A stretch of 64,000 nucleotides of DNA from Nitrospirota bacterium (GTDB lineage Bacteria; Nitrospirota; Thermodesulfovibrionia; Thermodesulfovibrionales; UBA9159), in the NCBI GenBank assembly GCA_023382175.1, contig JAMCQB010000049.1, positions 2,888-66,887 of the forward strand, in the 5' to 3' direction. The position numbers were made by a program, and so were the translations under genes. Positions within the stretch are counted from its first letter, which is position 1. Each line of letters begins with the position of its first letter. Shown here piece after piece: positions 1,655-29,923 of the stretch. Below the pieces are notes generated by a model. That model worked only from the letters and a program-made list of their open reading frames with translations, did no database searches and was not told where the DNA came from.

Positions 1655-1695
1655 GTTAGCAACATGTCAGCAAATATGTTGGTAAATGGTTGGTA

Positions 1696-2385
1696 ATGCT
1701 ACTGTGTGACTTCCATATTCACACAAAATACTCTGACGGTTCCGTAGAGTTAAGAAGAACCATTGACCTCTTCGGACAGGCCGGCTTCGATGTAATCACC
1801 ATAACGGATCATGTGGTTAATGGGGATAGCTCCATCGGTAAAATTGCCCACAGATTCGGATTATCCGTGAAGGCTGATAACTTTGATGGATATATTTCCA
1901 ATATAAGACATGAGGCTCAAAGGGCATGGGATAAGTATGGAATGCTGGTAATTCCCGGAGTCGAAATAACCAAAAACTACGTCTCATCTGATAAATCTGC
2001 ACATATTCTTATCATTGACATAAAAGAATTCATCCCTGCCTGCTGGAGCTATGAAAAGATATTCCTTGAGGCAAAACAGCAGGATGCCCTGATAATAGCC
2101 TGTCATCCCCATCACATGTCCGACATGAGCAGAAGCACCTTGTATCTCTGGAATAACAGGGACAAGTACGCCAGGTACATCGACGCATGGGAAGTGGCGA
2201 ACAGGGATGATGTCTTTAACGTGATAAGCCTGAAGAAATATCCCTACATAGCAAACAGCGATTTTCACAGGACAAGACATCTTTACTCATGGAAAACCCT
2301 GCTGAACTGCGAAAAAAATACTGGATCGGTAAAACAATGTATAAGGCACAACAAAGGCGTCGCAATAACACTCTTTAGAAGTTAG
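1696..2385 (+). CDS. PHP-domain phosphoesterase
   Basis: The N-terminal CDFHIHTKYSDGS motif and later HPH and DFH histidine motifs are typical of the PHP family. ATG 1696 is preferred over TTG 1690. Confidence 0.7.
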   Translation: MLLCDFHIHTKYSDGSVELRRTIDLFGQAGFDVITITDHVVNGDSSIGKIAHRFGLSVKADNFDGYISNIRHEAQRAWDKYGMLVIPGVEITKNYVSSDKSAHILIIDIKEFIPACWSYEKIFLEAKQQDALIIACHPHHMSDMSRSTLYLWNNRDKYARYIDAWEVANRDDVFNVISLKKYPYIANSDFHRTRHLYSWKTLLNCEKNTGSVKQCIRHNKGVAITLFRS

Positions 2386-2395
2386 GAGGAAGGAA

Positions 2396-3610
2396 ATGGA
2401 AATATTCTGGATATTTACAGGCATAACAATTCTCGGACTTGTCGGATATGGACTTCAGATATTCGCGGTCCGTTCCTATATTTCTCATCCCTCCCTCAAC
2501 TCCGGGGAAGGGGATTCCCTTCCCCGATCTTTTCCGCCGATCTCTATCCTCAAACCTCTCAAAGGGCTTGATGACAATCTATTTGATAATCTTGAAAGCT
2601 TCTGCATGCTGGATTATCCTGAGTATGAAATTATATTCTCACTTCAGGATTTCAATGACCCTGCATATAAAGTAGCACGAAAAATCAAGGATAAATATCC
2701 CGATAGAGATATTGCTATCGTTGTCGAACATTGCGAGGACGGATTGAACCCAAAGGTGAACAACCTGATCCCTGCTTACAGAGTTGCCAAGCACCAGCAC
2801 ATACTCATCAGCGACAGCAATGTCATGGTCGATAAATATTACCTCAGGGAGATATCAATGCCTATGAATGAGCAAGGAGTCGGACTCGTGAGTAACCTCA
2901 TCAAGGGAGTGGGAGGAAGGTCCATCGGCTCCATACTTGAAAACCTCCACATGAACTCCTTTGTCATGGGAAGCGTCTGCTTCCTTGACAAATTCCTTAA
3001 AATGCCCTGCGTTATCGGGAAATCCATGCTGATGAAGAAGAGAGACATCGAAGCCATCGGCGGACTGAAGGCATACAAGGATGTGCTTGCCGAAGACTAT
3101 ATGATAGGCAAGATGATGCAAGAAAGCGGCAAAAAGGTGGTCCTGTCAAGTTATGTGATAAACAACGTGAACCATTATTGGGGTATCATAAAATTCATAA
3201 ACAGACACACCAGATGGGGAAAGCTCAGATGGAAAATCGGGGGTATAAAATATCTTTCTGAATTGATTGGGAACACCGTATTCATGTCTGTGCTTCCGAT
3301 AATGCTCTGGGAACCGTCAAAAATCACCGTCTCTTTTGCGCTGCTTGTCGCCCTGCTAAAAGCTTCCGGCGATTTTTATATCGGCAGACGCGCTGCTTCG
3401 GACCTGAATCCCTTTTTCTATTTTCTTTCGCCGCTAAAAGACATCGTCATAGGACTCATCTGGTTTGTCCCTCTTGTAAGCAACACCGTCTTGTGGAGAG
3501 GCCATCGCTTTATCATAGAGAAAGATTCAGTCTTATTCCCCTGTCCGGAAAACGGCTTCTGGTCATGGAGATACCGCATAGCGAATGCCATAAGAGAACA
3601 CCTTGCTTGA
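2396..3610 (+). CDS. membrane glycosyltransferase, ceramide glucosyltransferase-like (GT2/GT21)
   Basis: 404 aa with an N-terminal TM segment. ISILKPLKG, DSN and EDY (D/ED motifs) plus the RHTRWGKLRW (QxxRW-like) motif and C-terminal TM segments match this family. An RBS (GGAGGAAGG) lies upstream. Confidence 0.65.
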   Translation: MEIFWIFTGITILGLVGYGLQIFAVRSYISHPSLNSGEGDSLPRSFPPISILKPLKGLDDNLFDNLESFCMLDYPEYEIIFSLQDFNDPAYKVARKIKDKYPDRDIAIVVEHCEDGLNPKVNNLIPAYRVAKHQHILISDSNVMVDKYYLREISMPMNEQGVGLVSNLIKGVGGRSIGSILENLHMNSFVMGSVCFLDKFLKMPCVIGKSMLMKKRDIEAIGGLKAYKDVLAEDYMIGKMMQESGKKVVLSSYVINNVNHYWGIIKFINRHTRWGKLRWKIGGIKYLSELIGNTVFMSVLPIMLWEPSKITVSFALLVALLKASGDFYIGRRAASDLNPFFYFLSPLKDIVIGLIWFVPLVSNTVLWRGHRFIIEKDSVLFPCPENGFWSWRYRIANAIREHLA

Positions 3611-4001: not shown

Positions 4002-5285
4002 ATGAAGAAAGTCTTTGTCCTGGACACAAATGTATTGATCCATGACCCGGCGTCGATTTTCAAGTTCGAAAATAACGACATCGTAATACCGTTTACCGTC
4101 ATCGGGGAACTGGACAGGCACAAGAAAGGGCGCGGGGAAATTGCGGCTTCAGCGAGACAAGCCCTGAGGTCAATAGATGAACTGAGGGAAGCAGGCTCGC
4201 TTTCTTCGGGTATAAGAATGGCCACCGGTGGGATGATCTCGGTAAGTCTGCCTGCAACGAATTCATCAGGAAAGCTTCCGAGCAAAGGAGCAGAGGACAG
4301 TCAGATCATAAAGACTGCTCTCAGCATAGCAGCAAAGGAAGCCGAGGACCATAAAGGCAATTCTGTCCCTGTCGTTCTTGTCACGAAGGATACCGCGGTG
4401 AGAATAAAGGCGGAGTCGCTGGGCATCAGGGTTGAGGACTACATGAACGACAAGACTTCCCTCTTTCAGCAATATGGCAAGGTCCTTACCGATGGCGACA
4501 ACACTAACGGTATAGCGTCTCTCAGATATGTGAGCTCTGAAACGAACATCTACAAATTGGCAGGAACCGAAAGTGTAAGAGCTATAAAGAGATCGAGAGA
4601 AAGAATGGGTATCTCACCCAGGAATGTCGAACAGGAATGCGCTCTGGACGCCCTTTCAGATCCCGGAATCGAAATTGTTGCATTGACGGGCAACGCCGGG
4701 ACAGGCAAGACGCTCCTTGCGTTGGCAGCAGGTCTGCACCAAACTGCACAGGTCGTAAAGAAGACTTCACAGTATGAACAGGTGATCGTTTCGCGCCCGA
4801 TTGTGCCCATGGGCAACGACATAGGATATCTCCCCGGCAACATGGAGGAAAAGCTGACACCCTGGATGCAGCCGATTTTCGACAATCTGGAGGTCATCCT
4901 GAATACGCCCAAAGGAATCATGAAGGACAATACCAATGTCTCGAAGATGAAAAGCTATCAATACCTAATGGATGCCGGCCTGCTGCAGGTGGAGCCTCTC
5001 ACCTATATAAGGGGGAGGAGCCTTCCAAAGCGGTACTTTGTCATTGATGAGGCACAGAACCTGAGGCCCCTTGATATAAAAACCATTGTAACAAGGTGCG
5101 GAGAGGGAACGAAAATTGTTTTTACCGGCGATCTTGATCAGATTGACACACCGTATCTGGATAAAATGAGCAATGGCCTTGCATACTTGATAAGCCGGTT
5201 CATCAATGAAGAGAATTTCTGTTTTCTCAATCTCAGGAAAAGCGTGAGGTCACGGTTGGCAGAACAGGGAGCCAGATTATTATAG
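4002..5285 (+). CDS. phoH: PhoH-like ATPase with N-terminal PIN domain (PhoH2/YlaK type)
   Basis: N-terminal VLDTNVLIHD PIN motif and Walker A GNAGTGKT. VIDEAQN and FTGDLDQID motifs are typical of PhoH. Confidence 0.85.
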   Translation: MKKVFVLDTNVLIHDPASIFKFENNDIVIPFTVIGELDRHKKGRGEIAASARQALRSIDELREAGSLSSGIRMATGGMISVSLPATNSSGKLPSKGAEDSQIIKTALSIAAKEAEDHKGNSVPVVLVTKDTAVRIKAESLGIRVEDYMNDKTSLFQQYGKVLTDGDNTNGIASLRYVSSETNIYKLAGTESVRAIKRSRERMGISPRNVEQECALDALSDPGIEIVALTGNAGTGKTLLALAAGLHQTAQVVKKTSQYEQVIVSRPIVPMGNDIGYLPGNMEEKLTPWMQPIFDNLEVILNTPKGIMKDNTNVSKMKSYQYLMDAGLLQVEPLTYIRGRSLPKRYFVIDEAQNLRPLDIKTIVTRCGEGTKIVFTGDLDQIDTPYLDKMSNGLAYLISRFINEENFCFLNLRKSVRSRLAEQGARLL

Positions 5286-9908: not shown

Positions 9909-11090
9909 ATGAAAAAAAGTATTTGGCAGGCGATGAGCAGCATAGCTATTTCATTAATAATATCACTTGTATCTGTGTCCCCCTCCTTTTCTGGAGAACG
10001 GTTGCTCGATAACCATAAGGAAGTCAAGAATATCATCTTCATGGTTCCTGACGGTATGGGCTTGGCCGATGTAACAGCGGCCCGCATCTATAAGAACGGT
10101 ATCGACGGCGCTCCTCTCTACTTCGAGACCCTGGAAGAGATCGGATACCAGAGAACATATTCAGCCGACAACACGATTACCGATTCAGCGGCTGCGGGCT
10201 CGGCTTGGGCTTGCGGAGAGAAGTTCGACAATGGTGAAATCTGCTACCACAGCGACGGGCGCCCTTACAACCCCAGCATTCTCGAATTGGCGAAGAGTCG
10301 AGGCAGGTCAACAGGGCTTGTGGCTACTTCCACAATCACACACGCCACTCCTGCGGTCTTTGGCGCCCATGTGAAGTCTCGTGGCTGCGAAAACGAAATA
10401 GCCTGTCAGTATATTGAGATGACAAGACCTGATGTGGTGCTCGGTGGCGGCGTATCAAAGTTCAATTCCACAAAACCAGACAAATGCGGCACCGCCGGCG
10501 ACTTCATCTCGGAAGCTTTGAATGAAGGGTATAAAGTTGTGTACACGAAAGAGGAAATGGAAAGCGCAGTATCGAGCGACACAACAAAACTCCTCGGACT
10601 TTTCAATAGCGGCGGCATGACCCCGGAATATCTCAGAACTCCCGGCCTTACTGAACCGAGACTGCCGGAGATGGCAAAAGCCGCTCTTAACATCCTCGAA
10701 AGAAATAAGCAAGGTTTCTTTGTAATGATCGAAGGTTCGCAGATTGACTGGGGCAATCACGCCAATAATCTGCAGTATCAAATCGGGGAAACCCTTGCCT
10801 TTGACGAGGCTGTGAAGGTCGTTCTCGATTGGATTAACGCAAGGCAGGAGAGGAAAGAGCACACTCTTCTCATTGTTGTCCCGGATCATGAAACCGGCGG
10901 CTTTGCCATCAACGGAAATGAAGACGTTCCTGCATTGGGACAATTTGTGCCGGGCTGGACCACAAGTGGTCATACAGGCACAGATACTGTCATATGGAGC
11001 CAGGGACCCGGCAGTCATACACTGGGCAGAGCCCTTGATAATACTAACCTTTATTGGATAATGAGGGAATCTTTAAAGGACAAAGAATAG
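9909..11090 (+). CDS. phoA: alkaline phosphatase (PhoA family), secreted
   Basis: Signal peptide, an active-site region DSAAAG(S/T) (here TDSAAAGSAWA), and DWGNHAN and DHETGG motifs. Confidence 0.85.
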   Translation: MKKSIWQAMSSIAISLIISLVSVSPSFSGERLLDNHKEVKNIIFMVPDGMGLADVTAARIYKNGIDGAPLYFETLEEIGYQRTYSADNTITDSAAAGSAWACGEKFDNGEICYHSDGRPYNPSILELAKSRGRSTGLVATSTITHATPAVFGAHVKSRGCENEIACQYIEMTRPDVVLGGGVSKFNSTKPDKCGTAGDFISEALNEGYKVVYTKEEMESAVSSDTTKLLGLFNSGGMTPEYLRTPGLTEPRLPEMAKAALNILERNKQGFFVMIEGSQIDWGNHANNLQYQIGETLAFDEAVKVVLDWINARQERKEHTLLIVVPDHETGGFAINGNEDVPALGQFVPGWTTSGHTGTDTVIWSQGPGSHTLGRALDNTNLYWIMRESLKDKE

Positions 11091-12637: not shown

Positions 12638-13078
12638 ATGCGCTTATTCAAGAAAGTCATAGATATAATCGTCAAGCTGATGATTCCCCTTGTAATCCTC
12701 GCTCTGATGATAGGGATTGCAAGGATATTCCTTGATTTGAGAGAGGTTTTCAAGAGTTCGACCATAGCCGGCGGTTTTGACATCATGGTGACGAATATCC
12801 TGTCGATGTTCGTCATCATAGAACTTCTTAAAGGGATCATAGAATATTTTGAGATACACAGGGTGAAGATTACCTTTATTACGGATGCAACATTGGTTTT
12901 TCTTCTCAGGGAAGTCATGATCGGCATATATCAACATAAAATGGGCTGGACTGAAATAATTTCAATTGCAGCGCTGCTCATCGTCATCGGCGGTATAAGG
13001 ACCATGGCTATTGTCTATTCGCCGGACAAGAGCAAGGAGGTGGCTGTCCATGAGCAAGGAACTGATCGAGAGAATTGA
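12638..13078 (+). CDS. psiE: phosphate-starvation-inducible PsiE-like membrane protein
   Basis: 146 aa with four TM segments. The central FVIIELLKGIIEYF...ATLVFLLREVMI pattern is similar to PsiE. Confidence 0.6.
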   Translation: MRLFKKVIDIIVKLMIPLVILALMIGIARIFLDLREVFKSSTIAGGFDIMVTNILSMFVIIELLKGIIEYFEIHRVKITFITDATLVFLLREVMIGIYQHKMGWTEIISIAALLIVIGGIRTMAIVYSPDKSKEVAVHEQGTDREN

Positions 13079-13602: not shown

Positions 13603-14829
13603 ATGGATCAGCTTTGTGGCGAATCGCCTCAGGTTGGAAAACTGATTACATCCCGTGAACACCTGCAACCGGATGTTGTTGTCAGAGATGTGGCAGATCG
13701 CTTTTTCAAGTCTTCTGAACTTGATGCGCTGGCCCTTGTTGAGGGGAGAAATCCTCTTGGGCTTGTTACTAGGCCGAAGTTCTTCTTCACGGTGTTCAGG
13801 AGATACGGATTCGAACTCTATGGAAGGAAGCCGATCATTACTATCGCCGATACGGCGCCGCTTCTGATGCATGAGGACGAAAGACTTGATGTCGCGATAG
13901 ACAAGGCGCTGGAGCGGCCCCCTCAGGACGTCTACGACGATATTGTTGTGGTGAATGAGTCCGGCTCATACGCAGGGCTGCTCTCCGTAAAACAGATGGT
14001 AATTCAACAAAGCACTGTGCTCGCAAATAATATCATCCAAAAAGAAATGGTGCAGGCAAAGGCAAAAGAGATAGAGAGGATGAGTGAGTTAAGGTCCCGG
14101 TTTATAGCCCATGTCACCCATGAACTCAGATCGCCGGTGAATGCGATCATAGGACTGGCAGAACTCATACAGGTATCATCCCGGAAGGGTTATATGGAGC
14201 AGATGAAGGACCGCCTCGCGCTTCTCATGTCCAGTGCAACCAACCTCCGGGCTATTGTGACAAACATTCTTGACCTTTCAAAGATTGAGGCCGGAAAGAT
14301 GGAAGTGATAACGGAACAATTCAACGTGGTGACCCTCCTCAACGAGGCGGCGGAAACAACCCGCGTCCTGGTCGGAAATAAGCCGGTTAATGTGGAAGTG
14401 ATTGCGCATGAAGACCCGTTGTTTATGGTTTCCGATCCCGTTAAGATACGGCAGATACTGACCAACCTCCTAAGTAATGCGGCAAAATTTACAGAAAAAG
14501 GCAAGATTCTCATATCGCTCGGCCTTGAAGGAAGCAGGGTGAGAATTGTTGTGAGCGATACGGGGATAGGGATAAGAGAAAATGAGATGGACAAATTGTT
14601 CGTGGCCTTCAGTCAACTGGAAGATACGATGACCAAGAGACACGAGGGAACGGGACTTGGATTGACTATCACCAAGAACTTACTAACCATCTTAGGGGGT
14701 AAGATCACCGTGGCGAGCAATTTTGGGGAAGGAACGTCGTTTACGGTTTTTTTCCCTTTAAATCATATGACAAAGGAGGATAGTTCAGATGGAAGGCAAG
14801 AGAGACAAAAAGATGGTACTGATCATTGA
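13603..14829 (+). CDS. cytoplasmic sensor histidine kinase (CBS-like N-terminal module, HisKA, HATPase_c)
   Basis: H-box FIAHVTHELRSP, N-box LLSNAAKFT, and G-boxes DTGIGI and GTGLGL. No TM segments are present. Confidence 0.85.
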   Translation: MDQLCGESPQVGKLITSREHLQPDVVVRDVADRFFKSSELDALALVEGRNPLGLVTRPKFFFTVFRRYGFELYGRKPIITIADTAPLLMHEDERLDVAIDKALERPPQDVYDDIVVVNESGSYAGLLSVKQMVIQQSTVLANNIIQKEMVQAKAKEIERMSELRSRFIAHVTHELRSPVNAIIGLAELIQVSSRKGYMEQMKDRLALLMSSATNLRAIVTNILDLSKIEAGKMEVITEQFNVVTLLNEAAETTRVLVGNKPVNVEVIAHEDPLFMVSDPVKIRQILTNLLSNAAKFTEKGKILISLGLEGSRVRIVVSDTGIGIRENEMDKLFVAFSQLEDTMTKRHEGTGLGLTITKNLLTILGGKITVASNFGEGTSFTVFFPLNHMTKEDSSDGRQERQKDGTDH

Positions 14830-15178
14830 TGATGACGTGAAACATCTCCTCACTGCGAAGGGTCTTTTGGAGAATATGGGATATGAGGTACGCATACATC
14901 ATTTTGCATTCGGAGCTACTAATGCGGTGAGAGAGACAAAACCGGATCTTGTTTTGCTTGATATGAATATGCCCGGCCTCTCAGGTGAAAGGCTTTCGAA
15001 ACTGCTCCTTTCGAATGGCAAAACGAAGGACATTCCTATTGTATTCTATTCCTCCAATGATGAAGACAACTTGAGGAAGGCCGTGGTCGAATACGGCGTA
15101 AAGGGTTACATCGCCAAAGGAGATATCTTTGAGTTGCGAAAAAAAGTCGCGAGCTATTTGGAGTCGCCGATTGGTTGA
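14789..15178 (+). CDS. single-domain response regulator (receiver only)
   Basis: VLIIDDD, DLVLLDMNMPG and a C-terminal K (KGYIAK) are receiver motifs. An RBS (AAGGAGG) precedes it. It overlaps the kinase 3' end. Confidence 0.85.
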   Translation: MEGKRDKKMVLIIDDDVKHLLTAKGLLENMGYEVRIHHFAFGATNAVRETKPDLVLLDMNMPGLSGERLSKLLLSNGKTKDIPIVFYSSNDEDNLRKAVVEYGVKGYIAKGDIFELRKKVASYLESPIG

Positions 15179-15296
15179 CGGGCACTGCCCTGACGGAAAT
15201 ACTGGAAGTCGTTGTCTCCAGGTCTTACCCCGTGCAACGGCGCCTGCGAAGAACGCCTGAGAAGGAGAAAGCACATACCGGAAGGAGGTGAGCGAA

Positions 15297-15461
15297 ATGT
15301 GTCCAAGTTTTAATAGGCCGATTTGTGAAGTGGCGGGTATCGAACCGGAAAGAATACACTGCACCGATAAAAACGCCTGCATGGGAGAATGGGAAAAGTG
15401 CCCGGTCTTCATAGCCCAATTTTTTGTGGAGGCAGGCATAGCATTTGACAGAGTTGCATAG
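15297..15461 (+). CDS. small cysteine protein, paralog C2 (54 aa, below the ORF-track cutoff)
   Basis: Hand translation gives MCPSFNRPICEVAGIEPERIHCTDKNACMGEWEKCPVFIAQFFVEAGIAFDRVA. A GGAGGTGAGCGAA RBS precedes it. The C-terminal C-x6-CPVF matches the family. Confidence 0.55.
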   Translation: MCPSFNRPICEVAGIEPERIHCTDKNACMGEWEKCPVFIAQFFVEAGIAFDRVA

Positions 15462-15551: not shown

Positions 15552-15596
15552 AATTAACCTGGCTGTAATAATCCTGTAACAAAATAGTTGTATCCT
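15552..15596 (+). promoter_or_regulatory. Pho-box-like promoter
   Basis: AATTAAC ctgg CTGTAAT aatc CTGTAAC, then 10 bp, then TATCCT (15591-15596). The geometry and -10 hexamer are the same as at pstS. Confidence 0.6.
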
Positions 15597-15616
15597 TGAT
15601 ACTAAGGAGGATAAGA

Positions 15617-15832
15617 ATGCATCTAAAAAGTGGAGCGATCTGTCAATTTCTGAAAGGGGGTTCTGACGGAGCTCAGTGCAGCGTGGTCGGCAGGTTCATC
15701 AGGCTCATGGAAGACGCCGACATCCGGCTCTGTATGGGCAGACACCATGAGGCATGCTCATACTATGTGCTCTCATTACGGGGACTGGCTCTTAGGGCTG
15801 CGGATCCTGATACTGCATTAGGCACGCGGTAG
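15617..15832 (+). CDS. small four-cysteine protein, paralog D
   Basis: ATG 15617 follows AAGGAGG. The Cys pattern is C-x11-C-x17-C-x7-C (ICQF...AQCS...RLCMGRHHEACSYY). Confidence 0.5.
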   Translation: MHLKSGAICQFLKGGSDGAQCSVVGRFIRLMEDADIRLCMGRHHEACSYYVLSLRGLALRAADPDTALGTR

Positions 15833-18115: not shown

Positions 18116-19315
18116 TCAACCTTTCAACTCCCGTATTCTGTCTGTCAATTCCCAGGGCAGCCCTATATCCATTCTGCCCACATGTCCATATACTGCAAGC
18201 CTTCTGTAAAAACCGCCCTTAACAATGGAGGGCAGGTACCGCAGATTGAACTGTTTTATTATTCCCGCAAGTCGAAAGTCAAAATGCCTCTCAATGAGTT
18301 CTGCAATCTTCTCATCAGAGGTCTTCCCTGTGCCAAAGGTCTCTACCTGAACACTCACCGGCCTTGAAAGACCTATAGAATAGCTGAGATGTATCTCGCA
18401 TTCCTCTGCAAGCCCTGCTGCTACCACATTCTTTGCCGCATATCTGGCGGCATATGCGCCTATCCTGTCTATACGCATGGGGTCTTTTCCGCTCAGGGCA
18501 GAGCCGCTGTGCCGGGAATATTCTCCATAGGTGTCTATGGCATTCTTTCTCCCTGTTAAGCCTGAATGGACAGAAGGACCACCAACTATGAACGGCCCGT
18601 CGGGATTTATGAATATCCTCGTGTTTGTATCAGGTTTGATCTCCTCATCGGCGAATACAGGGTTTACAACAGCAGCCCTTATATCGTCATGCAGTTTCTT
18701 TAAATCAGGACCGCCTGATGCTAACGGTTTGTTCTGGCTCGCGATCACTGTAACACTGTGAATACTGTAAGGCCTGCCATCCCTGTATTCCACTCCTACC
18801 TGTGTTTTCCCGTCAGGTGCAAGATAGGGGAGTATCTTCTGGAGCCTGACAGAGGTCAGTTTTCTTGCAAGCCTGTGAGCGAGCCAGATGGGAAGGGGCA
18901 TAAAAGATGCGGTCTGGTTGCAGGCAAAGCCGAAGACAGTGACCTGATTCCTGACAGGGATATTATCCATCTCCTCCTCCGATAGCTCTCTCTCATCAAG
19001 GCAGCAATGCTCATCTGAAGGCAATTCCTTGAGGCTTGTTACAATGCTGCAGGTCTTGCCGTTAAAGGCATGCTGGTCATAGCCGATCTGGTTTATAACC
19101 TGTCTTGCTATATACGGGAAATCTACAATGGCATTGGATTCAAACCTTGCTGCTATAAAAACTATGGCTGTGGATACAGCACACTCAGCAATGACCCTTG
19201 AAAATGGGTCCTGCTGAAGGAAATGATCTACAAGGGCATCGCTTATCTGGTCACAGAGCTTGTCAGGGTGTCCTTCTGTTACAGATTCTGATATAAAAAT
19301 AAAGTCCTTTTTCAT
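18116..19315 (-). CDS. S-adenosylmethionine synthetase-like protein (divergent MetK paralog)
   Basis: The N-terminal SESVTEGHPDKLCDQISDA and GLTGRK..DTYG...SGKDP..DR.GAYAARY are clearly MetK-like. The GAGDQG signature region is replaced. Confidence 0.8.
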   Translation of the reverse strand: MKKDFIFISESVTEGHPDKLCDQISDALVDHFLQQDPFSRVIAECAVSTAIVFIAARFESNAIVDFPYIARQVINQIGYDQHAFNGKTCSIVTSLKELPSDEHCCLDERELSEEEMDNIPVRNQVTVFGFACNQTASFMPLPIWLAHRLARKLTSVRLQKILPYLAPDGKTQVGVEYRDGRPYSIHSVTVIASQNKPLASGGPDLKKLHDDIRAAVVNPVFADEEIKPDTNTRIFINPDGPFIVGGPSVHSGLTGRKNAIDTYGEYSRHSGSALSGKDPMRIDRIGAYAARYAAKNVVAAGLAEECEIHLSYSIGLSRPVSVQVETFGTGKTSDEKIAELIERHFDFRLAGIIKQFNLRYLPSIVKGGFYRRLAVYGHVGRMDIGLPWELTDRIRELKG

Positions 19316-19329
19316 TTAGCACCTCATTG

Positions 19330-19407
19330 CTTAAGGTTAAGGTTGAGGCTAAGGTTAAGAATTACAAATTTTTAATCTCTCTTAACCTAAACCTTAACCT
19401 CAACCTG
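19330..19407. repeat. hexamer-based palindrome (TTRAGG)n / (CCTYAA)n between the ATPase stop and the metK-like start
   Basis: ttaagg ttaagg ttgagg ctaagg ttaaga, then a loop, then tcttaacc taaacc ttaacc tcaacc. The right arm includes the ATPase stop codon. Confidence 0.6.
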
Positions 19408-24300: not shown

Positions 24301-24564
24301 ATGATGCAGTACAAGATTTTACATCATGTCCCAGGCCGTATCAGGATTGAGGTGCCCTCCATTAAGGGACGTTCCCTGAAGGCTCTAAAGCGATTATCAG
24401 ATATTCCCGTTCCGTGCGGTATAGAGGACATTCGCCCTAATCCCTTGACAGGAAGCCTCTTGATAAAGTATGACCCAGGCCGGATAAATATCGTTTCCTA
24501 TCTGAGGGACATGGCATCCAGGGACGTGATAAACAATGTACTCGACAAAGGAGGTTTGTTATGA
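24301..24564 (+). CDS. stand-alone HMA2-type domain protein
   Basis: HHVPGRIRIEVP...NPLTGSLLIKYDP. The start was moved to ATG 24301 because ATG 24268 abuts the predicted -10. The RBS is AAGAGGA. Confidence 0.6.
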   Translation: MMQYKILHHVPGRIRIEVPSIKGRSLKALKRLSDIPVPCGIEDIRPNPLTGSLLIKYDPGRINIVSYLRDMASRDVINNVLDKGGLL

Positions 24565-24770
24565 ACAGCACCCATAACATTGCATCTATGATACACCTCA
24601 CCAATGAATTGGAATTGCAGTGCCCCTACTTTGATGCATCCGACGTCTGCAATGCCTCGCTCTCCTCATTATTGCCATCGCCGACTATGAGGGTGAATTT
24701 CTGTAACAGCGAAGACTATGACAATTGCCCCATATTCCTGGCTAAGGTCTTAAGAAGGAGGCGGAAATGA
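24561..24770 (+). CDS. small four-cysteine protein, paralog E
   Basis: ATGA start/stop overlap with the upstream gene and an AAGGAGG RBS. The Cys pattern is C-x8-C-x17-C-x7-CPIF. Confidence 0.55.
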   Translation: MNSTHNIASMIHLTNELELQCPYFDASDVCNASLSSLLPSPTMRVNFCNSEDYDNCPIFLAKVLRRRRK

Positions 24771-24958
24771 CATGTCTCGACTATGTGTCCGAAGATTTGA
24801 GATGTCTCAGGGGTATCCCCGTTACTCCAAGGTTCAGCAGCTTCTTCTGTAAAGGAAAACATGAGAAATGTCCTTTGATCATATGGGAGAAATCTCAGAC
24901 AAAGAACCCGGAGATGTTACGGCCGAAATCATTTATCAATATATGGAGGGAACCATGA
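24767..24958 (+). CDS. small four-cysteine protein, paralog F
   Basis: ATGA overlap and an AAGGAGG RBS. The Cys pattern is C-x9-C-x14-C-x6-CPLI. Confidence 0.5.
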   Translation: MTCLDYVSEDLRCLRGIPVTPRFSSFFCKGKHEKCPLIIWEKSQTKNPEMLRPKSFINIWREP

Positions 24959-25134
24959 AATGTCCGCATCTGGCAAAATGGGTCGTGTCTGTCTGTAAGG
25001 CTGTGAGTAATACTTATGTCCCCAGTAACTTTGAGCTTCAAGAGTACTGTAAGACAAAAAGCCATAAGAAATGCCCTTTCTTTTTAAAGAATACAGCCGT
25101 GAAAAGAGAAGCGGATGGCCTGATCTCAGCATAG
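24955..25134 (+). CDS. small four-cysteine protein, paralog G
   Basis: ATGA overlap with F and a GGAGGG RBS. MKCPHLAKWVVSVCKAV...YCKTKSHKKCPFFL gives the pattern C-x10-C-x17-C-x7-CPFF. Confidence 0.55.
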   Translation: MKCPHLAKWVVSVCKAVSNTYVPSNFELQEYCKTKSHKKCPFFLKNTAVKREADGLISA

Positions 25135-25487: not shown

Positions 25488-26498
25488 ATGAAAAATGTAA
25501 TAAGTTTAGTTCTCGCAATCGCCGTTATTCTCTCGTTCACGGTGGCAGGAGCAGAAGAAACATTGAACGGCGCAGGTGCAACATTCCCCTATCCTGTTTA
25601 TTCTGCATGGGCATATGACTATCATAAGACAACAGGTGTAAAACTTAATTACCAGTCAATAGGCTCAGGGGGAGGCATCAGACAGATCGTAAACAGAACA
25701 GTGGATTTTGGAGGCTCCGACAATGTTCTTACCCCGCAGGACCTCAATAAAGACAATCTGCTTCAATTCCCGGCAGTAATGGGCGGTGTTGTCCCTGTGG
25801 TCAATATACCAGGCGTTAAGGAGGGCGAGCTAAGGCTTGATTCCGAGGCTGTATGCAAAATATTCCTCGGAGATATCAAACAGTGGAATGACAAGAAAAT
25901 AAAAGACTTAAATCCGAAAATAAATCTCCCTGATAAAGAGATAACCGTTGTGCACAGGTCAGACGGCTCAGGAACAACAGCCATCTATACCCATTATCTC
26001 AGCGGCGCATGCGCTGCATGGAAAGATAAGGTCGGCTATGGAACATCAGTCAAGTGGCCGGTTGGCATAGGCGGCAAAGGGAATGAAGGTGTTGCCAACT
26101 ATGTTAAGCGGACACCGAATTCCATCGGATATGTGGAATTCGCCTATGCAAAGCAGAATAAGCTTGCACACACACTCCTGAAGAATCCGGCAGGAAACTT
26201 TGTTGAACCGTCCTTTGATACCTTTGAAGATGCTGCTGCCACAGCGGATTTTGATGCCAAAAACCATTTTGCCACATGGCTTACCAACGCACCGGGCAAG
26301 AATTCATGGCCTATAGCTGGCGCTACCTTTATACTCCTCGCAAAGGAAAAAAAGGACTCTAATGTAAAGACCGTAAAATTCTTTGACTGGGCGTTCAAAA
26401 ATGGTGATGCAAAGGCAAAGGAACTCATCTATATCCCGATGCCAAAGTCTCTAAAGGATAAAATCAGGGCATACTGGAAGGCAAACGGAATATATTAG
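25488..26498 (+). CDS. pstS: phosphate ABC transporter substrate-binding protein
   Basis: Signal peptide, GAGATFPYPVY, SIGSGGG and RSDGSGTT motifs. Confidence 0.95.
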   Translation: MKNVISLVLAIAVILSFTVAGAEETLNGAGATFPYPVYSAWAYDYHKTTGVKLNYQSIGSGGGIRQIVNRTVDFGGSDNVLTPQDLNKDNLLQFPAVMGGVVPVVNIPGVKEGELRLDSEAVCKIFLGDIKQWNDKKIKDLNPKINLPDKEITVVHRSDGSGTTAIYTHYLSGACAAWKDKVGYGTSVKWPVGIGGKGNEGVANYVKRTPNSIGYVEFAYAKQNKLAHTLLKNPAGNFVEPSFDTFEDAAATADFDAKNHFATWLTNAPGKNSWPIAGATFILLAKEKKDSNVKTVKFFDWAFKNGDAKAKELIYIPMPKSLKDKIRAYWKANGIY

Positions 26499-26520
26499 GT
26501 ACCACAGGCTAAAGGCGAAT

Positions 26521-26570
26521 AGGCTGAAGGCAAAAGGTTAAAACTGCCTTATTCCTTCAGCCTTTTTTTT
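26521..26570 (+). terminator. intrinsic terminator after pstS
   Basis: AGGCTGAAGG ... CCTTCAGCCT stem followed by T8. Confidence 0.7.
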
Positions 26571-26650
26571 GACCTTAAATTTAATCAAGAGAATTCAGGG
26601 AGGGGAGATATGAGATGCCTCGCGGCTCCGCTGCGGGGTAATTCATTAAA

Positions 26651-26679
26651 TTGCAATAGACAATTCCGATATGTATTAT
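26651..26679 (+). promoter_or_regulatory. possible sigma70-type internal promoter for pstCAB-phoU
   Basis: TTGCAA-N17-TATTAT. Confidence 0.35.
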
Positions 26680-26713
26680 ATATTGACCACTGACTGTAAG
26701 GAGCATTATCGCT

Positions 26714-27655
26714 GTGATTTTTTCAAAAAAGAAAAATCCTGTTGATTTAACTTTCTCATTTATTACCGGTATCGCATCCGTCTCTGTTATTTTAATTACC
26801 GCAGGCATTTTATATGTGCTTTTTAAGGAATCTTCCCTTTCTATAGAAAGGTTTGGTTTTTTTAAATTCCTTACACTGGTTGATTGGGATCCTGTGAAGG
26901 AATCTTTTGGAGCCGCCGCAGCCCTTTATGGAACATTAATCACCACAGTTTTGGCCCTTATTATTGCCATACCGGTTGCCGTTGGAATTGCCATATATGT
27001 TACAGAGGTCGCCCCCAATTTCCTGAAGGGTCCCGTCGGGATTGCCATAGAGCTTTTAGCGGCCATACCCAGCATCATTTACGGCATGTGGGGTCTCTTC
27101 ACCCTTTCCCCGATTATGGCCAAGTACATCGAACCCTTTTTGCAAAGGACTGTCGGGAAACTACCCCTCGTTGGAATTCTGTTTGAAGGCACTCCCCTGG
27201 GCATAGACTTCTTAACGGCGAGCATGATACTCGGCATAATGATAATTCCGTTTACAGCGAGCATATCGAGGGATGCCTTTAACCTTACGCCGGCAGTAGT
27301 CAAGGAGTCAGCCTATGCAGTGGGCGCTACAAAATGGGAAGTGGTAAAGGATATAGTGCTGCCCTATTCAAAACTGGGCGTCTTTGGAGGTGTTGCCATC
27401 TCCCTCGGAAGGGCGCTGGGTGAAACAATGGCCGTGGCCTTTGTCCTCGGAAACAACAACCAGATAACCACATCCCTCTTCGGCGCAGCAGCCACCGTTA
27501 CGGTAAAACTCGCAAACGAGTTTACAGAAGCGGACAAGGACATCTATCTTTCATCATTATATTATTTGGCGCTCTTGCTCTTTGTTATGAGCTTTATTGT
27601 CCTGGCTATCGCAAAGTTCCTTTTATTAAAGGCCGAAAGGAGATACAGCAGGTGA
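26714..27655 (+). CDS. pstC: phosphate ABC transporter permease PstC
   Basis: Polytopic permease with an EAA-like loop (ESAYAVGATKWEV). GTG start. Its position in the pst operon supports the call. Confidence 0.9.
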   Translation: MIFSKKKNPVDLTFSFITGIASVSVILITAGILYVLFKESSLSIERFGFFKFLTLVDWDPVKESFGAAAALYGTLITTVLALIIAIPVAVGIAIYVTEVAPNFLKGPVGIAIELLAAIPSIIYGMWGLFTLSPIMAKYIEPFLQRTVGKLPLVGILFEGTPLGIDFLTASMILGIMIIPFTASISRDAFNLTPAVVKESAYAVGATKWEVVKDIVLPYSKLGVFGGVAISLGRALGETMAVAFVLGNNNQITTSLFGAAATVTVKLANEFTEADKDIYLSSLYYLALLLFVMSFIVLAIAKFLLLKAERRYSR

Positions 27656-28494
27656 GGCGTGAAAGATTAAGGGTTATACAGAGCCATGCTGCTTTTGTCG
27701 TAAGCACCCTTACCGCCCTGTTCGGTATTTTCTGGCTCGTATTCATTATCGGTGACATCCTTATTCACGGCATAGGTGCGCTGAACATAGACCTGTTCAT
27801 AAAGGACCCGGCCCCGGCAGGTGTGGAGGGAGGCGGCTTGAGGAACGCATTTGTAGGGCATCTGATGATAACCCTGTTTGCAACATTGATAGGCGTCCCT
27901 GTGGGCGTGCTCGGCGGCACATTCCTCGCAGAATACGCAAGGGGCAAAAAAATCGCCCGTTTTATAAGCATCCTCTCGGACATAATGGTAAGTGTTCCAG
28001 CCATTGTGGTCGGCACGTTCGTATATGCCATAATCGTAAAACCCCTCGGTCATTTCAGCGGCTGGGCAGGGGCGGTTGCCCTGGCAATAATAATGATCCC
28101 CGTTGTCCTGAGGACAACAGAGGACATGCTTTCCCTTGTATCATGGACGGTCAGAGAAGCTGCCTTTGCCCTCGGCGCTCCCTATTATAAAGTCATTCTA
28201 CAGGTGGTTTACAGGGGAGCGGCCACCGGCATCTTAACGGGGATCCTCCTTTCCATTGCAAGGGTTACAGGGGAAGCAGCGCCCCTTTTATTTACATCAT
28301 TTAACAACTCCTTCTTCTCCACAAACATGAATGAACCGATAGCTTCCCTTACGGTATCCATATTCCAGTATGCCATGGGGCCTTATGACAGCTGGCATGC
28401 GCAGGCATGGGCTGCAGCGCTGATGATTACGGTATTCATTCTCATTATTACAGTACTCGGAAGGCTCATCATAAAATGGAGGTACAAGAAGTGA
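27652..28494 (+). CDS. pstA: phosphate ABC transporter permease PstA
   Basis: Permease with [10 protein letters not shown] motif. Its start overlaps the pstC stop. Confidence 0.9.
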
Positions 28495-29255
28495 CAGGAC
28501 AAATAGAGCTCGAGGCCAAAAATCTTAACTTTTATTACTCAGGCAACATACATGCCCTGAAGCAGGTAAGCTTCTTCGCCTATAAGCACAATGTTACGGC
28601 GTTGATAGGACCCTCCGGCTGCGGCAAAACCACGCTCCTCAGGTGTTTCAACAGAATGCATGACCTGTATCCTAAAAATAGGTACGAAGGCGAGATAGTC
28701 TTTCAGGGTAAAAATATTCTTTCTAAGGACGTAGATGTCATTAACCTCAGGAGCCGTATCGGCATGGTATTTCAGAAACCGACCCCATTCCCCATGACCA
28801 TATTCGACAATGTCGCATACGGTCTGAAGTTAAAGGGAATCAACAAAAGGACAGAACTCTCGGAAAGGGTTGAAAAGGCCCTTAAAAATTCAGCCATCTG
28901 GGATGAGGTTAAAGATAAGCTCAATGTCAGCGCTTACGAGCTTTCCGGAGGACAGCAGCAGAGGCTCGTTATCGCAAGGGCATTGGCCGTCGAGCCGGAG
29001 GTCTTGCTTTTTGACGAGCCCACATCCGCTCTCGACCCCATATCCACAAGCAAGATAGAGGAGCTTCTTGTCCAGTTAAAAAGCAAGATCACCATAATTA
29101 TCGTTACCCACAATATGCAGCAGGCAGCGAGGATCTCTGACTTTACCGGGTTTGTAATGCTCGGGGAGTTGATTGAGTTCGATAAAACTGATAAAATGTT
29201 CACCGCTCCCTCTGAAAAACTCACAGAGGAATATATAACAGGGAGGTTCGGCTGA
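28476..29255 (+). CDS. pstB: phosphate ABC transporter ATP-binding protein PstB
   Basis: Walker [10 protein letters not shown], signature LSGGQQQR and Walker [12 protein letters not shown]. The start is ATG 28476 or GTG 28491 (GTGA overlap with the pstA stop). Confidence 0.95.
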
Positions 29256-29923
29256 TGACTGTCTTTGATGAAGAGTTGCAGCATTTAAAAGAAAAGCTTC
29301 TCAAGATGGGATCCCTGGTGGAAGATGCGATTAAGAATTCCATACATGCCCTTGTGGACAGGGACAATGCCCTTGCAGCAAAGGTCATTGAAAATGACCG
29401 GATAATAAACACGTTCGATGTTGAGATTGATGAAGAATCCATCCGGCTCATCGCATTGAAACAGCCGAGGGCAGGTGATCTGCGATTGATAACAACTGCG
29501 ATGAAGATAACCACTGACCTCGAAAGGATGGGAGATATGGCTGTCAATATAGCCGAAAGGGCGTTGGAGCTGAATGAAGAGCCTATTCTCAAGCCATATA
29601 TTGACATACCGAAGATGAGCCAAATTGCACAAGGCATGACGAGGGATGCCCTCGACGCCTTTGTGAGAAAAGACAAAAAGCTCGCAACAGACGTGATTAT
29701 GAGAGATGATGAAGTTGATGACCTCAAGCATGACGTATTGCAGGAACTTGCCTTTTTTATGGCCCAGGATCCCACAACAGTTTTCCGTGCCATGAAGATA
29801 AGCTTTGTGGCAACGTATCTCGAACGCATTGCAGACCATGCTACCAATATCGCTGAGATGGTGATCTATCTGGTTGAAGGAAAAATAATCAGACATATGC
29901 TGCCTCCGGCTGAAGACAAATAA
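29255..29923 (+). CDS. phoU: phosphate signalling complex protein PhoU
   Basis: Duplicated PhoU repeats with E..D..ID and DLERIGD-like motifs (DLERMGDMAVNIAE, YLERIADHATNIAE). Confidence 0.9.
   Translation: MTVFDEELQHLKEKLLKMGSLVEDAIKNSIHALVDRDNALAAKVIENDRIINTFDVEIDEESIRLIALKQPRAGDLRLITTAMKITTDLERMGDMAVNIAERALELNEEPILKPYIDIPKMSQIAQGMTRDALDAFVRKDKKLATDVIMRDDEVDDLKHDVLQELAFFMAQDPTTVFRAMKISFVATYLERIADHATNIAEMVIYLVEGKIIRHMLPPAEDK

Follow-up and report, generated by a model that had tools for sequence, protein, structure and literature searches.

MetK, the S-adenosylmethionine (SAM) synthetase or methionine adenosyltransferase represented by the E. coli enzyme (PDB 1FUG/1RG9; curated model TIGR01034), has a scaffold that is among the most conserved in biology. 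Here we describe a MetK-like protein encoded in a 64,000-nucleotide stretch of contig JAMCQB010000049.1 from a Nitrospirota bacterium (hereafter the window), where its gene lies directly downstream of a P-type ATPase. Several P-type ATPases work with accessory subunits or regulators, such as Na,K-ATPase beta/FXYD, KdpC/KdpF, CDC50 and phospholamban/sarcolipin. The MetK-like protein resembles these in being a candidate second gene product dedicated to one pump, and in the bacterial Kdp system such a product is co-transcribed and translationally coupled with its pump. The known accessory proteins, however, are membrane or small regulatory proteins, whereas the MetK-like protein has a soluble enzyme fold. 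We know of no P-type ATPase whose accessory subunits include a soluble protein with an enzyme fold and an intact nucleotide/polyphosphate site.

Two further systems invite comparison. In the calcyanin (ccyA) neighbourhoods of cyanobacteria that form intracellular amorphous Ca-carbonate, small CoBaHMA and DUF5132 proteins occur with a Ca2+ transporter, as they do here, although the transporter in Microcystis is a Ca2+/H+ exchanger rather than a P-type ATPase. According to the calcyanin literature, the HMA_2 domain is the CoBaHMA domain, first described in calcyanin, and Chlorogloeopsis fritschii PCC 6912, which carries the cassette described below, is a ccyA-bearing strain. The accessible papers on these neighbourhoods make no mention that we could find of a MetK-like gene. 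No calcyanin gene, which would be recognised by a (GlyZip)3 C-terminal domain, turned up among the annotated neighbours of the cassette, where no search aimed at GlyZip proteins was made; what the two systems have in common is confined to the accessory CoBaHMA and DUF5132 proteins. The second system is the ‘prozyme’ of trypanosome S-adenosylmethionine decarboxylase (AdoMetDC; PMC6221367). It, too, is a SAM-pathway enzyme paralog whose active site is altered and whose action depends on a partner protein. The prozyme is catalytically dead and pairs with its parent enzyme, whereas the MetK-like protein keeps its metal/phosphate site and its partner is an unrelated pump. In the searchable literature we found neither a MetK linked to P-type ATPases, CoBaHMA or DUF5132 nor a MetK paralog or pseudoenzyme, with the proviso that Gaschignard 2024 (Proteins, on CoBaHMA) may mention the neighbour. 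The ATPase-linked MetK-like family is apparently undescribed.

A preliminary description of this DNA had proposed a MetK-fold open reading frame (ORF) on the minus strand at 18116-19315, and this stands. The 399-residue product contains the strings that were quoted (SESVTEGHPDKLCDQISDA, residues 9-27; VRNQVTVFGFA, residues 121-131; SGSALSGKD, residues 270-278) and is matched along its full length by Pfam and by 7r3b, the best solved-structure match (residues 3-398 aligned, E = 4e-98). The three Pfam MetK domains (PF00438/PF02772/PF02773) span residues 5-389 with E-values of 4e-34 to 3e-55. Identity to canonical MetK is about 40-48% across the full-length three-domain fold, and the GHPDK, GLTGRK, DTYG and SGKD...DR motifs and the Mg2+/K+/triphosphate ligands are shared. 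On TIGR01034 the protein scores 381.9 bits against an equivalog cut-off of 309.4; canonical MetKs reach about 542-544 bits, and the divergent family to which it belongs spans 307-404, one member falling under the cut-off.

The same description had noted that both SAM-synthetase signatures are degenerate, and this proved correct well beyond the window. We ran the patterns G-A-G-D-Q-G-x3-G-[FYH] and G-[GA]-G-[ASC]-F-S-x-K-[DE], written in PROSITE style, as regular expressions. The window protein reads P-V-R-N-Q-V-T-V-F-G-F and S-G-S-A-L-S-G-K-D at these sites, and alignments to PDB entries place P-V-R-N-Q-V opposite GAGDQG and HSGSALSGKD opposite HGGGAFSGKD. The first pattern is found in 87 of 96 canonical sequences and the second in 83, while neither is found in any of 67 divergent sequences or of 121 close relatives. 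Both signatures have thus genuinely been lost, throughout the family, and chance is not the explanation. By fold and curated hidden Markov model the protein is a MetK homolog; by its signatures and substrate contacts it falls outside the functional family.

The decisive context, which the preliminary description missed, is the upstream P-type ATPase. We searched 1.84 billion representative proteins and scanned one genome per GTDB species for the family, and examined 49 loci with a divergent-type gene (7 metagenome contigs and 42 GTDB genomes). All 49 have a homologous ATPase of about 1000-1100 residues with a CoBaHMA domain directly upstream on the same strand, whereas no such ATPase stands beside canonical metK in any of 37 loci from the same scan. 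In about 23 of the 49 the two genes share a 4-nt ATGA overlap, typical of translational coupling. The window has the same arrangement with a gap of 84 nt, which is occupied by a long hairpin with a predicted RNA folding energy of -35.5 kcal/mol (z = -6.2 against shuffled sequences) and no repeat elsewhere in the window; it may set the ratio of ATPase to MetK-like product or stabilise the upstream mRNA. Pairwise identities of the ATPase and the MetK-like protein correlate with r = 0.89 (903 pairs, 43 loci), showing that the two travel together. Some cassettes also have a second P-type ATPase nearby (L006, 9652-12336; L023, 9503-12244 on the minus strand; L037, 7034-10009). These second pumps lack CoBaHMA and have no MetK-like partner, so in these cassettes the MetK-like gene pairs only with the pump of the CoBaHMA type.

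The partner has the features of a functional cation pump powered by ATP. Across 43 partner ATPases the TGES, DKTGT, TGDQ and GDGxND motifs are invariant, as are the nucleotide-site residues (the KGxP lysine, conserved arginines and the TE motif) and the ion-site residues, namely the E of PEGLP, the N/E in transmembrane helix 5 (TM5) and N..S/T-D in TM6. We take the latter to be the counterparts of SERCA E309, N768/E771 and N796/T799/D800. Among solved structures, SPCA1, LMCA1 (a Ca2+-ATPase of Listeria) and SERCA come closest. The best NCBIfam matches remain under their equivalog cut-offs (607.7 against 798.3 bits for the PMR1-type model, 521.2 against 703.4 for the SERCA-type model), and for this reason Ca2+ (or Ca2+/Mn2+) as the pumped ion is a prediction. 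Two other views of the pump were considered and discarded. A pump that does not bind ATP and is driven by the MetK-like protein is ruled out by the invariant nucleotide residues of the N-domain, and kinship of the cassette with ferrosome (fez) systems by the class of the ATPase, which is P2A and not P1B, and by the identity of its HMA_2 domain as CoBaHMA.

To compare active sites we aligned the protein to E. coli MetK, using a reference sequence whose letters agree at all literature-numbered positions; numbering is that of the mature protein. We take D16 and D271 to be Mg2+ ligands, E42 the K+ ligand, and the lysines, arginine and histidine (H14, K17, K165, R244, K245, K265) to bind the triphosphate. 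All of these are present in the window protein, and all but K165 are at least 90% conserved in the family: H14 (H16 in the window protein), D16 (D18), K17 (K19), E42 (E44), K165 (K170), R244 (R256), K245 (K257), K265 (K277) and D271 (D283). The SAM contacts of the E. coli enzyme are E55, Q98, I102, H14, D163, R229, F230 and D238 (PMC8727953). Here H14, D163 (D168) and F230 (F242) are retained, while E55 is replaced by R57, Q98 by E97, I102 by D/E, R229 by P241 and D238 by H250. In addition, G115-A-G-D118-Q-G has become P-V-R-N123-Q-V, G258/G260 are changed to S, F262 to L274 and K269 to R281.

This division holds across the family. Forty-seven positions are at least 90% conserved and identical in the divergent and canonical groups, including H14, D16, K17, E42, R244, K245, K265, D271 and R272. 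Two columns have switched, with H at D238 in 94% and R at K269 in 91% of the sequences, and Q98, S99, I102, G115, G117, D118, F230, G253 and G260 are relaxed. F230 and K165 vary in the deeper branches, whereas the subclade of the window keeps the equivalents of D163, K165 and F230. All 121 close relatives share N123, H250, L274 and R281, and in them R57 is conserved at 90% or more. Since the substitutions fall on methionine/SAM contacts while the triphosphate and metal ligands stay the same, the pattern is a specific one: the methionine side of the pocket has been rebuilt and the triphosphate/metal side left untouched. Through R57, H250 and R281 the former methionine pocket is more basic and would suit an anionic group.

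A mapping of the substitutions onto E. coli MetK, a search for a second, canonical metK and a phylogenetic placement had all been proposed in the preliminary description, together with the idea of a non-canonical paralog. The mapping gave the result above. The search succeeded in C. fritschii PCC 6912, whose chromosome CP170746.1 is the one complete genome with the cassette and carries both genes. Its canonical enzyme (P0456, named ‘methionine adenosyltransferase [Chlorogloeopsis fritschii PCC 9212]’), reached by protein searches that started from the canonical cyanobacterial MetK of L047, is encoded at about 1.77 Mb (roughly 1,771,068-1,772,327) next to phosphoribulokinase, and the ATPase/MetK-like pair is found at about 5.92 Mb, with the MetK-like gene at roughly 5,915,663-5,916,847. 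Both signatures are intact in P0456, which reaches 541.7 bits on TIGR01034 against 404.5 bits for the C. fritschii MetK-like protein, and the two are 51% identical. The window protein, by contrast, is 72% identical to the C. fritschii MetK-like copy. This cross-phylum identity far exceeds that between the two C. fritschii paralogs, which indicates that the ATPase/MetK-like pair moves horizontally as a cassette. Canonical metK presumably coexists with the cassette in the other carriers too.

The phylogenetic placement set the divergent proteins apart from canonical MetK. In a neighbour-joining (NJ) tree of 167 sequences, one branch parts all 67 divergent from all 96 canonical sequences, and the split recurs in 99 of 100 NJ bootstrap replicates on a 35+35 subsample. 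Mean identity within the divergent family is about 53%, the same as among the sampled canonical sequences. The clade is recognised by H replacing D238, R replacing K269 and L replacing F262, by a basic residue in the E55 position and by a C-terminal insertion, all of which the window protein has. Closest to it are more than 120 clusters at 77-87% identity in Nitrospirota metagenome-assembled genomes (MAGs). The hallmark set also occurs in Thermodesulfobacteriota (Desulfomonile, Syntrophobacteraceae, Syntrophus, Geobacteraceae, Desulfovibrio), in Binatia and in Cyanobacteria (C. fritschii PCC 6912, Rivularia sp. UHCC 0363 and several MAGs), and other carriers are found in Gammaproteobacteria/Chromatiaceae, Rhodospirillales, Methylocystis sp. 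L43, Acidobacteriota and Terriglobia. Six phyla or more are thus represented in the family (Nitrospirota, Thermodesulfobacteriota, Binatia, Cyanobacteria, Proteobacteria, Acidobacteriota), and most carriers are anaerobic Nitrospirota and Desulfobacterota. The alternative once offered, a divergent lineage-specific MetK, finds no support in this range, in the monophyly or in the movement as a cassette. The ATPase-linked MetK-like family is monophyletic, and neither a lineage oddity nor a housekeeping enzyme.

The C-terminal insertion bears on the origin of the family. It comprises seven residues (LRxLP..GGFY; in the window protein the segment has 19 residues against 12) and is present in at least 54 of the 67 divergent sequences, and among the 96 canonical ones only in the cyanobacterial one (L047, 8001-9260, a canonical cyanobacterial MetK). 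The canonical C. fritschii MetK (P0456; L088, 5001-6260) has it too. Because the insertion is common to cyanobacterial canonical MetKs and absent from the other 95 canonical sequences, the comparison suggests duplication of a cyanobacterial-type metK as the origin of the divergent family, followed by horizontal spread. A gene of a Terriglobia MAG (L050, JAIQFQ010000041.1, 7986-9209) is a basal family member that retains D238 and the HGGGA motif, has N at E55, H at K269 and L at F262, and is already coupled to the ATPase by an 8-nt overlap. These residues make it an apparent transitional form in the evolution of the divergent family from canonical MetK. A tblastn search of PLSDB plasmids with the MetK-like protein returned canonical metK copies only, at up to 48% identity. 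Rosetta-stone fusions were also sought; the long matches in the representative search are intein-containing or chimeric canonical MetKs and not ATPase fusions. Three of these canonical homologs (P0178, P0214 and P0222; 691-833 residues) have large intein-like insertions, located directly after GAGDQG or within the GGGxF/SGKD motif.

We favour, with a probability of about 0.55, the reading that this is a neofunctionalised MetK paralog which serves as a dedicated cytoplasmic partner of the upstream CoBaHMA P2A-type pump, binding and hydrolysing triphosphate and making no SAM. The MetK fold and the dimer-interface Mg2+/K+/triphosphate site are kept and the residues that hold methionine (E55, Q98, D118, D238 and K269) are replaced; SAM formation would have been lost. 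The protein would then bind ATP or tripolyphosphate (PPPi), perhaps longer polyphosphate, and would probably hydrolyse the phosphate chain by the tripolyphosphatase (PPPase) half-reaction of MetK, in step with cation pumping by the ATPase or as a means of regulating it. The small CoBaHMA proteins, DUF5132, the ATPase and the MetK-like gene would be inherited and transferred as one unit.

Mutants of the E. coli enzyme, studied by Taylor & Markham (J Biol Chem 1999 and 2000), offer a guide to such a shift. D118N and D238N are reportedly reduced about 1000-fold in SAM synthesis and much less in PPPi hydrolysis, and K165A is said to raise PPPase activity. The window protein has the D118N change, and the family has D238H and a variable K165. 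Unlike these laboratory point mutants, the changes in the family are fixed, come together with E55R and K269R, and persist from phylum to phylum; this points to a new function under selection rather than to a defect. The Mg/K/triphosphate site is under purifying selection across phyla. A phosphate-directed role had already been suggested for this protein; the substitutions on methionine/SAM contacts and the invariant triphosphate/metal ligands are compatible with it, and fall short of proof.

More speculatively, and with appreciably less confidence, the pair could be a two-component machine in which a MetK-fold enzyme acts at the membrane, either by turnover of ATP, tripolyphosphate or polyphosphate or by synthesis of a novel adenosylated compound, and thereby controls the pump or the chemistry of what is pumped. 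Such an enzyme might make or destroy PPPi and pyrophosphate (PPi), both of which chelate Ca2+ strongly and inhibit mineral formation, and Ca2+ handling might in this way be tied to phosphate status or to intracellular stores of Ca-mineral or polyphosphate, with the CoBaHMA and DUF5132 membrane proteins taking part. If true, P-type ATPases would have their first accessory subunit with an enzyme fold, and the MetK scaffold a new catalytic role.

Several observations weigh against the favoured reading. Every residue thought to bind ATP (the equivalents of D163, K165 and F230) is present in the window protein, so adenosyl transfer to some nucleophile, even to methionine bound in some other manner, is possible. 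The TIGR01034 score still exceeds the equivalog cut-off. No second metK copy lies within the 64-kb window, which is all that is covered of the source genome. Structure prediction with the 121 close relatives as alignment gave an unusable model (mean predicted local distance difference test score, pLDDT, 49; predicted TM-score, pTM, 0.40), and physical contact with the ATPase is something we infer from gene order alone.

Among the competing explanations, a pseudoenzyme sensor, which would bind Mg-ATP, PPPi or polyphosphate without turnover and signal to the pump, for example via the basic CoBaHMA domain, seems to us unlikely, albeit the strongest of the three discussed here. It would account for the obligate pairing and translational coupling with the ATPase, for the loss of the second-substrate site and for the variability of the adenine-stacking F230 and of K165 in deeper branches, and CoBaHMA has been proposed to bind anionic partners (Gaschignard 2024, as quoted elsewhere). 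Yet the complete set of catalytic residues and metal ligands, among them H14, the Mg ligands D16/D271, K245 and K265, is invariant in a family with a mean identity of only about 53%, and such strictness exceeds the usual needs of binding. A slightly poorer candidate is an adenosyltransferase with another nucleophile (ATP + X -> 5'-X-5'-deoxyadenosine + PPPi), whose product would be used, sensed or transported by the pump system. The basic pocket (R57, H250, R281) would take an acidic or anionic substrate, the subclade of the window keeps the ATP-binding residues (D163, K165 and F230 equivalents) and all triphosphate ligands, and the methionine contacts have been exchanged for a conserved new set (R57, H250, R281, L274) and not lost by random decay. 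Against this, no biosynthetic or tailoring enzyme and no candidate consumer of the product recurs among the neighbours, and the family-wide variation at F230, K165 and D118 does not fit one conserved nucleoside chemistry. We also know of no P2A pump with intact Ca-type sites that moves organic cations.

An ordinary if divergent SAM synthetase, placed beside the pump for an unrelated or regulatory reason such as local SAM supply, is the least probable of these. The full-length MetK fold, the TIGR01034 score and the database name methionine adenosyltransferase would all agree with it, as would the D238 and GGG motif retained by the basal L050 protein. It has to contend, however, with four changed methionine/SAM contacts, with signatures that match none of the 67 family members, with the severe impairment that D118N and D238N reportedly cause in E. 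coli, and with a canonical enzyme on the same C. fritschii chromosome. Moreover, the 72% identity between Nitrospirota and cyanobacterial copies is what cassette transfer would leave, not housekeeping descent, and no SAM-dependent neighbours recur. We took a census of 150 neighbour ORFs in 27 non-redundant loci; methyltransferases, radical-SAM enzymes and other users of SAM did not recur in it, and supply of SAM to a SAM-dependent neighbour is ruled out on that ground.

The neofunctionalised, pump-associated paralog that we favour has consequences for annotation. All named divergent members (P0002-P0120, P0125 and P0313) are labelled ‘methionine adenosyltransferase’ or ‘S-adenosylmethionine synthetase’; the TIGR01034 cut-off admits a probably non-equivalent paralog, and the family is probably mis-named systematically in databases. 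Reconstructions of the metabolism of Nitrospirota, Desulfobacterota and some cyanobacteria may therefore include, as a SAM synthetase, a protein that probably is not one. On so conserved a scaffold, the family is a natural system in which to study the uncoupling or repurposing of the two MetK half-reactions. The strict and often translationally coupled pairing of its members with a P2A pump opens their function to direct tests, and suggests that pumps can be regulated or coupled in a new way. The overlap with calcyanin neighbourhoods in CoBaHMA and DUF5132, together with the proximity of pst/phoU genes, offers a handle on a link between Ca2+, phosphate and intracellular inclusions.

The remaining genes of the cassette and of its surroundings are listed in Table 1. 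On the minus strand the order is DUF5132-type protein, CoBaHMA protein, 233-residue repeat protein, CoBaHMA ATPase, MetK-like protein, DUF3562 protein and metallophosphoesterase.

Table 1. Features of the window in and around the ATPase/MetK-like cassette.
Feature	Coordinates	Strand	Basis and remarks
PIN-PhoH protein	4002-5285	+	
Alkaline phosphatase	9909-11090	+	
PsiE-family protein	12638-13078	+	
Histidine kinase/response regulator pair	13603-15178	+	
Zinc-ribbon protein, 108 residues	15871..16197	+	tblastn homologs in 14 loci; corresponding genes have Zn_ribbon Pfam matches
CoBaHMA/HMA protein, 123 residues	16178..16549	+	Pfam HMA_2 1e-12, HMA 2e-6; homologs flank the cassette in many loci
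YfcE-type metallophosphoesterase, 238 residues	17005..17721	-	Pfam Metallophos_2, TIGR00040
DUF3562 protein, 87 residues	17791..18054	-	Pfam DUF3562, 3.9e-7; directly downstream of the MetK-like gene
MetK-like protein, 399 residues	18116..19315	-	ATG start; Pfam N/M/C domains, TIGR01034; hallmarks R57, N123, H250, L274, R281
Spacer from ATPase stop to MetK-like start, 84 nt	19316..19399	-	Long near-perfect hairpin, then GAGGTG and ATG
P2A-type (Ca2+-ATPase-like) ATPase, 1056 residues	19400..22570	-	N-terminal CoBaHMA (HMA_2); Pfam E1-E2_ATPase, Cation_ATPase_N/C, Hydrolase, HMA_2
Repeat protein without Pfam match, 233 residues	22586..23287	-	V/K/G/E/A-rich, amphipathic-looking repeats, e.g. 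AVKEGV, TVKGAVKGAAEVG, ATKEVGG
CoBaHMA (HMA_2) protein, 160 residues	23347..23829	-	Pfam HMA_2, E = 1.6e-15; hydrophobic C-terminus/membrane hairpin; homologs in most cassettes
DUF5132-type small membrane protein, 96 residues	23829..24119	-	79%/71% identity to PF17195 DUF5132 ORFs of L001/L002
CoBaHMA-like small protein, 98 residues	24268..24564	+	Divergently transcribed; homologous to the HMA_2-annotated 84-residue gene of L002
pstS-pstC-pstA-pstB-phoU phosphate uptake operon	25488..29923	+	Beside the cassette; Pfam PBP_like_2, BPD_transp_1

Small members of the CoBaHMA and DUF5132 families are usual companions of the pair. The neighbour census contained 27 HMA_2 proteins, 10 DUF5132 proteins and 4-5 zinc ribbons, and tblastn found homologs of the 96-residue DUF5132-type protein in 26 loci. 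Most Nitrospirota loci and several from Desulfobacterota encode a homolog of the 233-residue protein, at 45-85% identity, right upstream of the ATPase, and the repeats of this protein are reminiscent of amphipathic repeats that coat lipids or inclusions. Small cysteine-rich ORFs flank the cassette on the plus strand (24561-25134, 15288-15461 and 15596-15832), and two such ORFs, of 69 and 88 residues, have tblastn homologs beside the cassette in the Nitrospirota loci L001-L003, L009, L012 and L014.

The two genes that follow the MetK-like gene are less constant. DUF3562 homologs occupy the downstream position in L008, L009, L012, L014 and L022 only. The metallophosphoesterase, to which the preliminary description had given emphasis, is indeed nearby, with the DUF3562 ORF in between, but elsewhere it is represented by one tblastn homolog (L014, 69%) and a weak Metallophos gene in the L001 annotation; it is not a conserved partner of the MetK-like gene.

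A phosphate-starvation context had been proposed as well, and here the evidence divides. The pstSCAB-phoU genes of the window are 72-80% identical to those beside the cassette in L002/L003, and pstSCAB/phoU adjoins the cassette in the window, in the Nitrospirota loci L002, L003, L009 and L012, and in two Desulfobacterota loci, a Syntrophus MAG and a Desulfobacteraceae MAG; in a fifth Nitrospirota locus the adjoining gene is PsiE. The link is thus recurrent but far from universal, being absent from most loci. In the window itself the PIN-PhoH, alkaline phosphatase, PsiE and histidine kinase/response regulator genes support such a context.

Close to the cassette and to pstSCAB-phoU, the window also encodes a glycosyltransferase of family 21 and a PHP-domain protein (1690-3610, plus strand). 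The Dissulfurispiraceae loci L002/L003 (11355-12934 and 16024-17974) have in addition an Acetyltransf_5 and Acyltransferase pair that resembles OlsB/OlsA. These genes are suggestive of the synthesis of phosphorus-free membrane lipids, which would fit a phosphate-limitation island.

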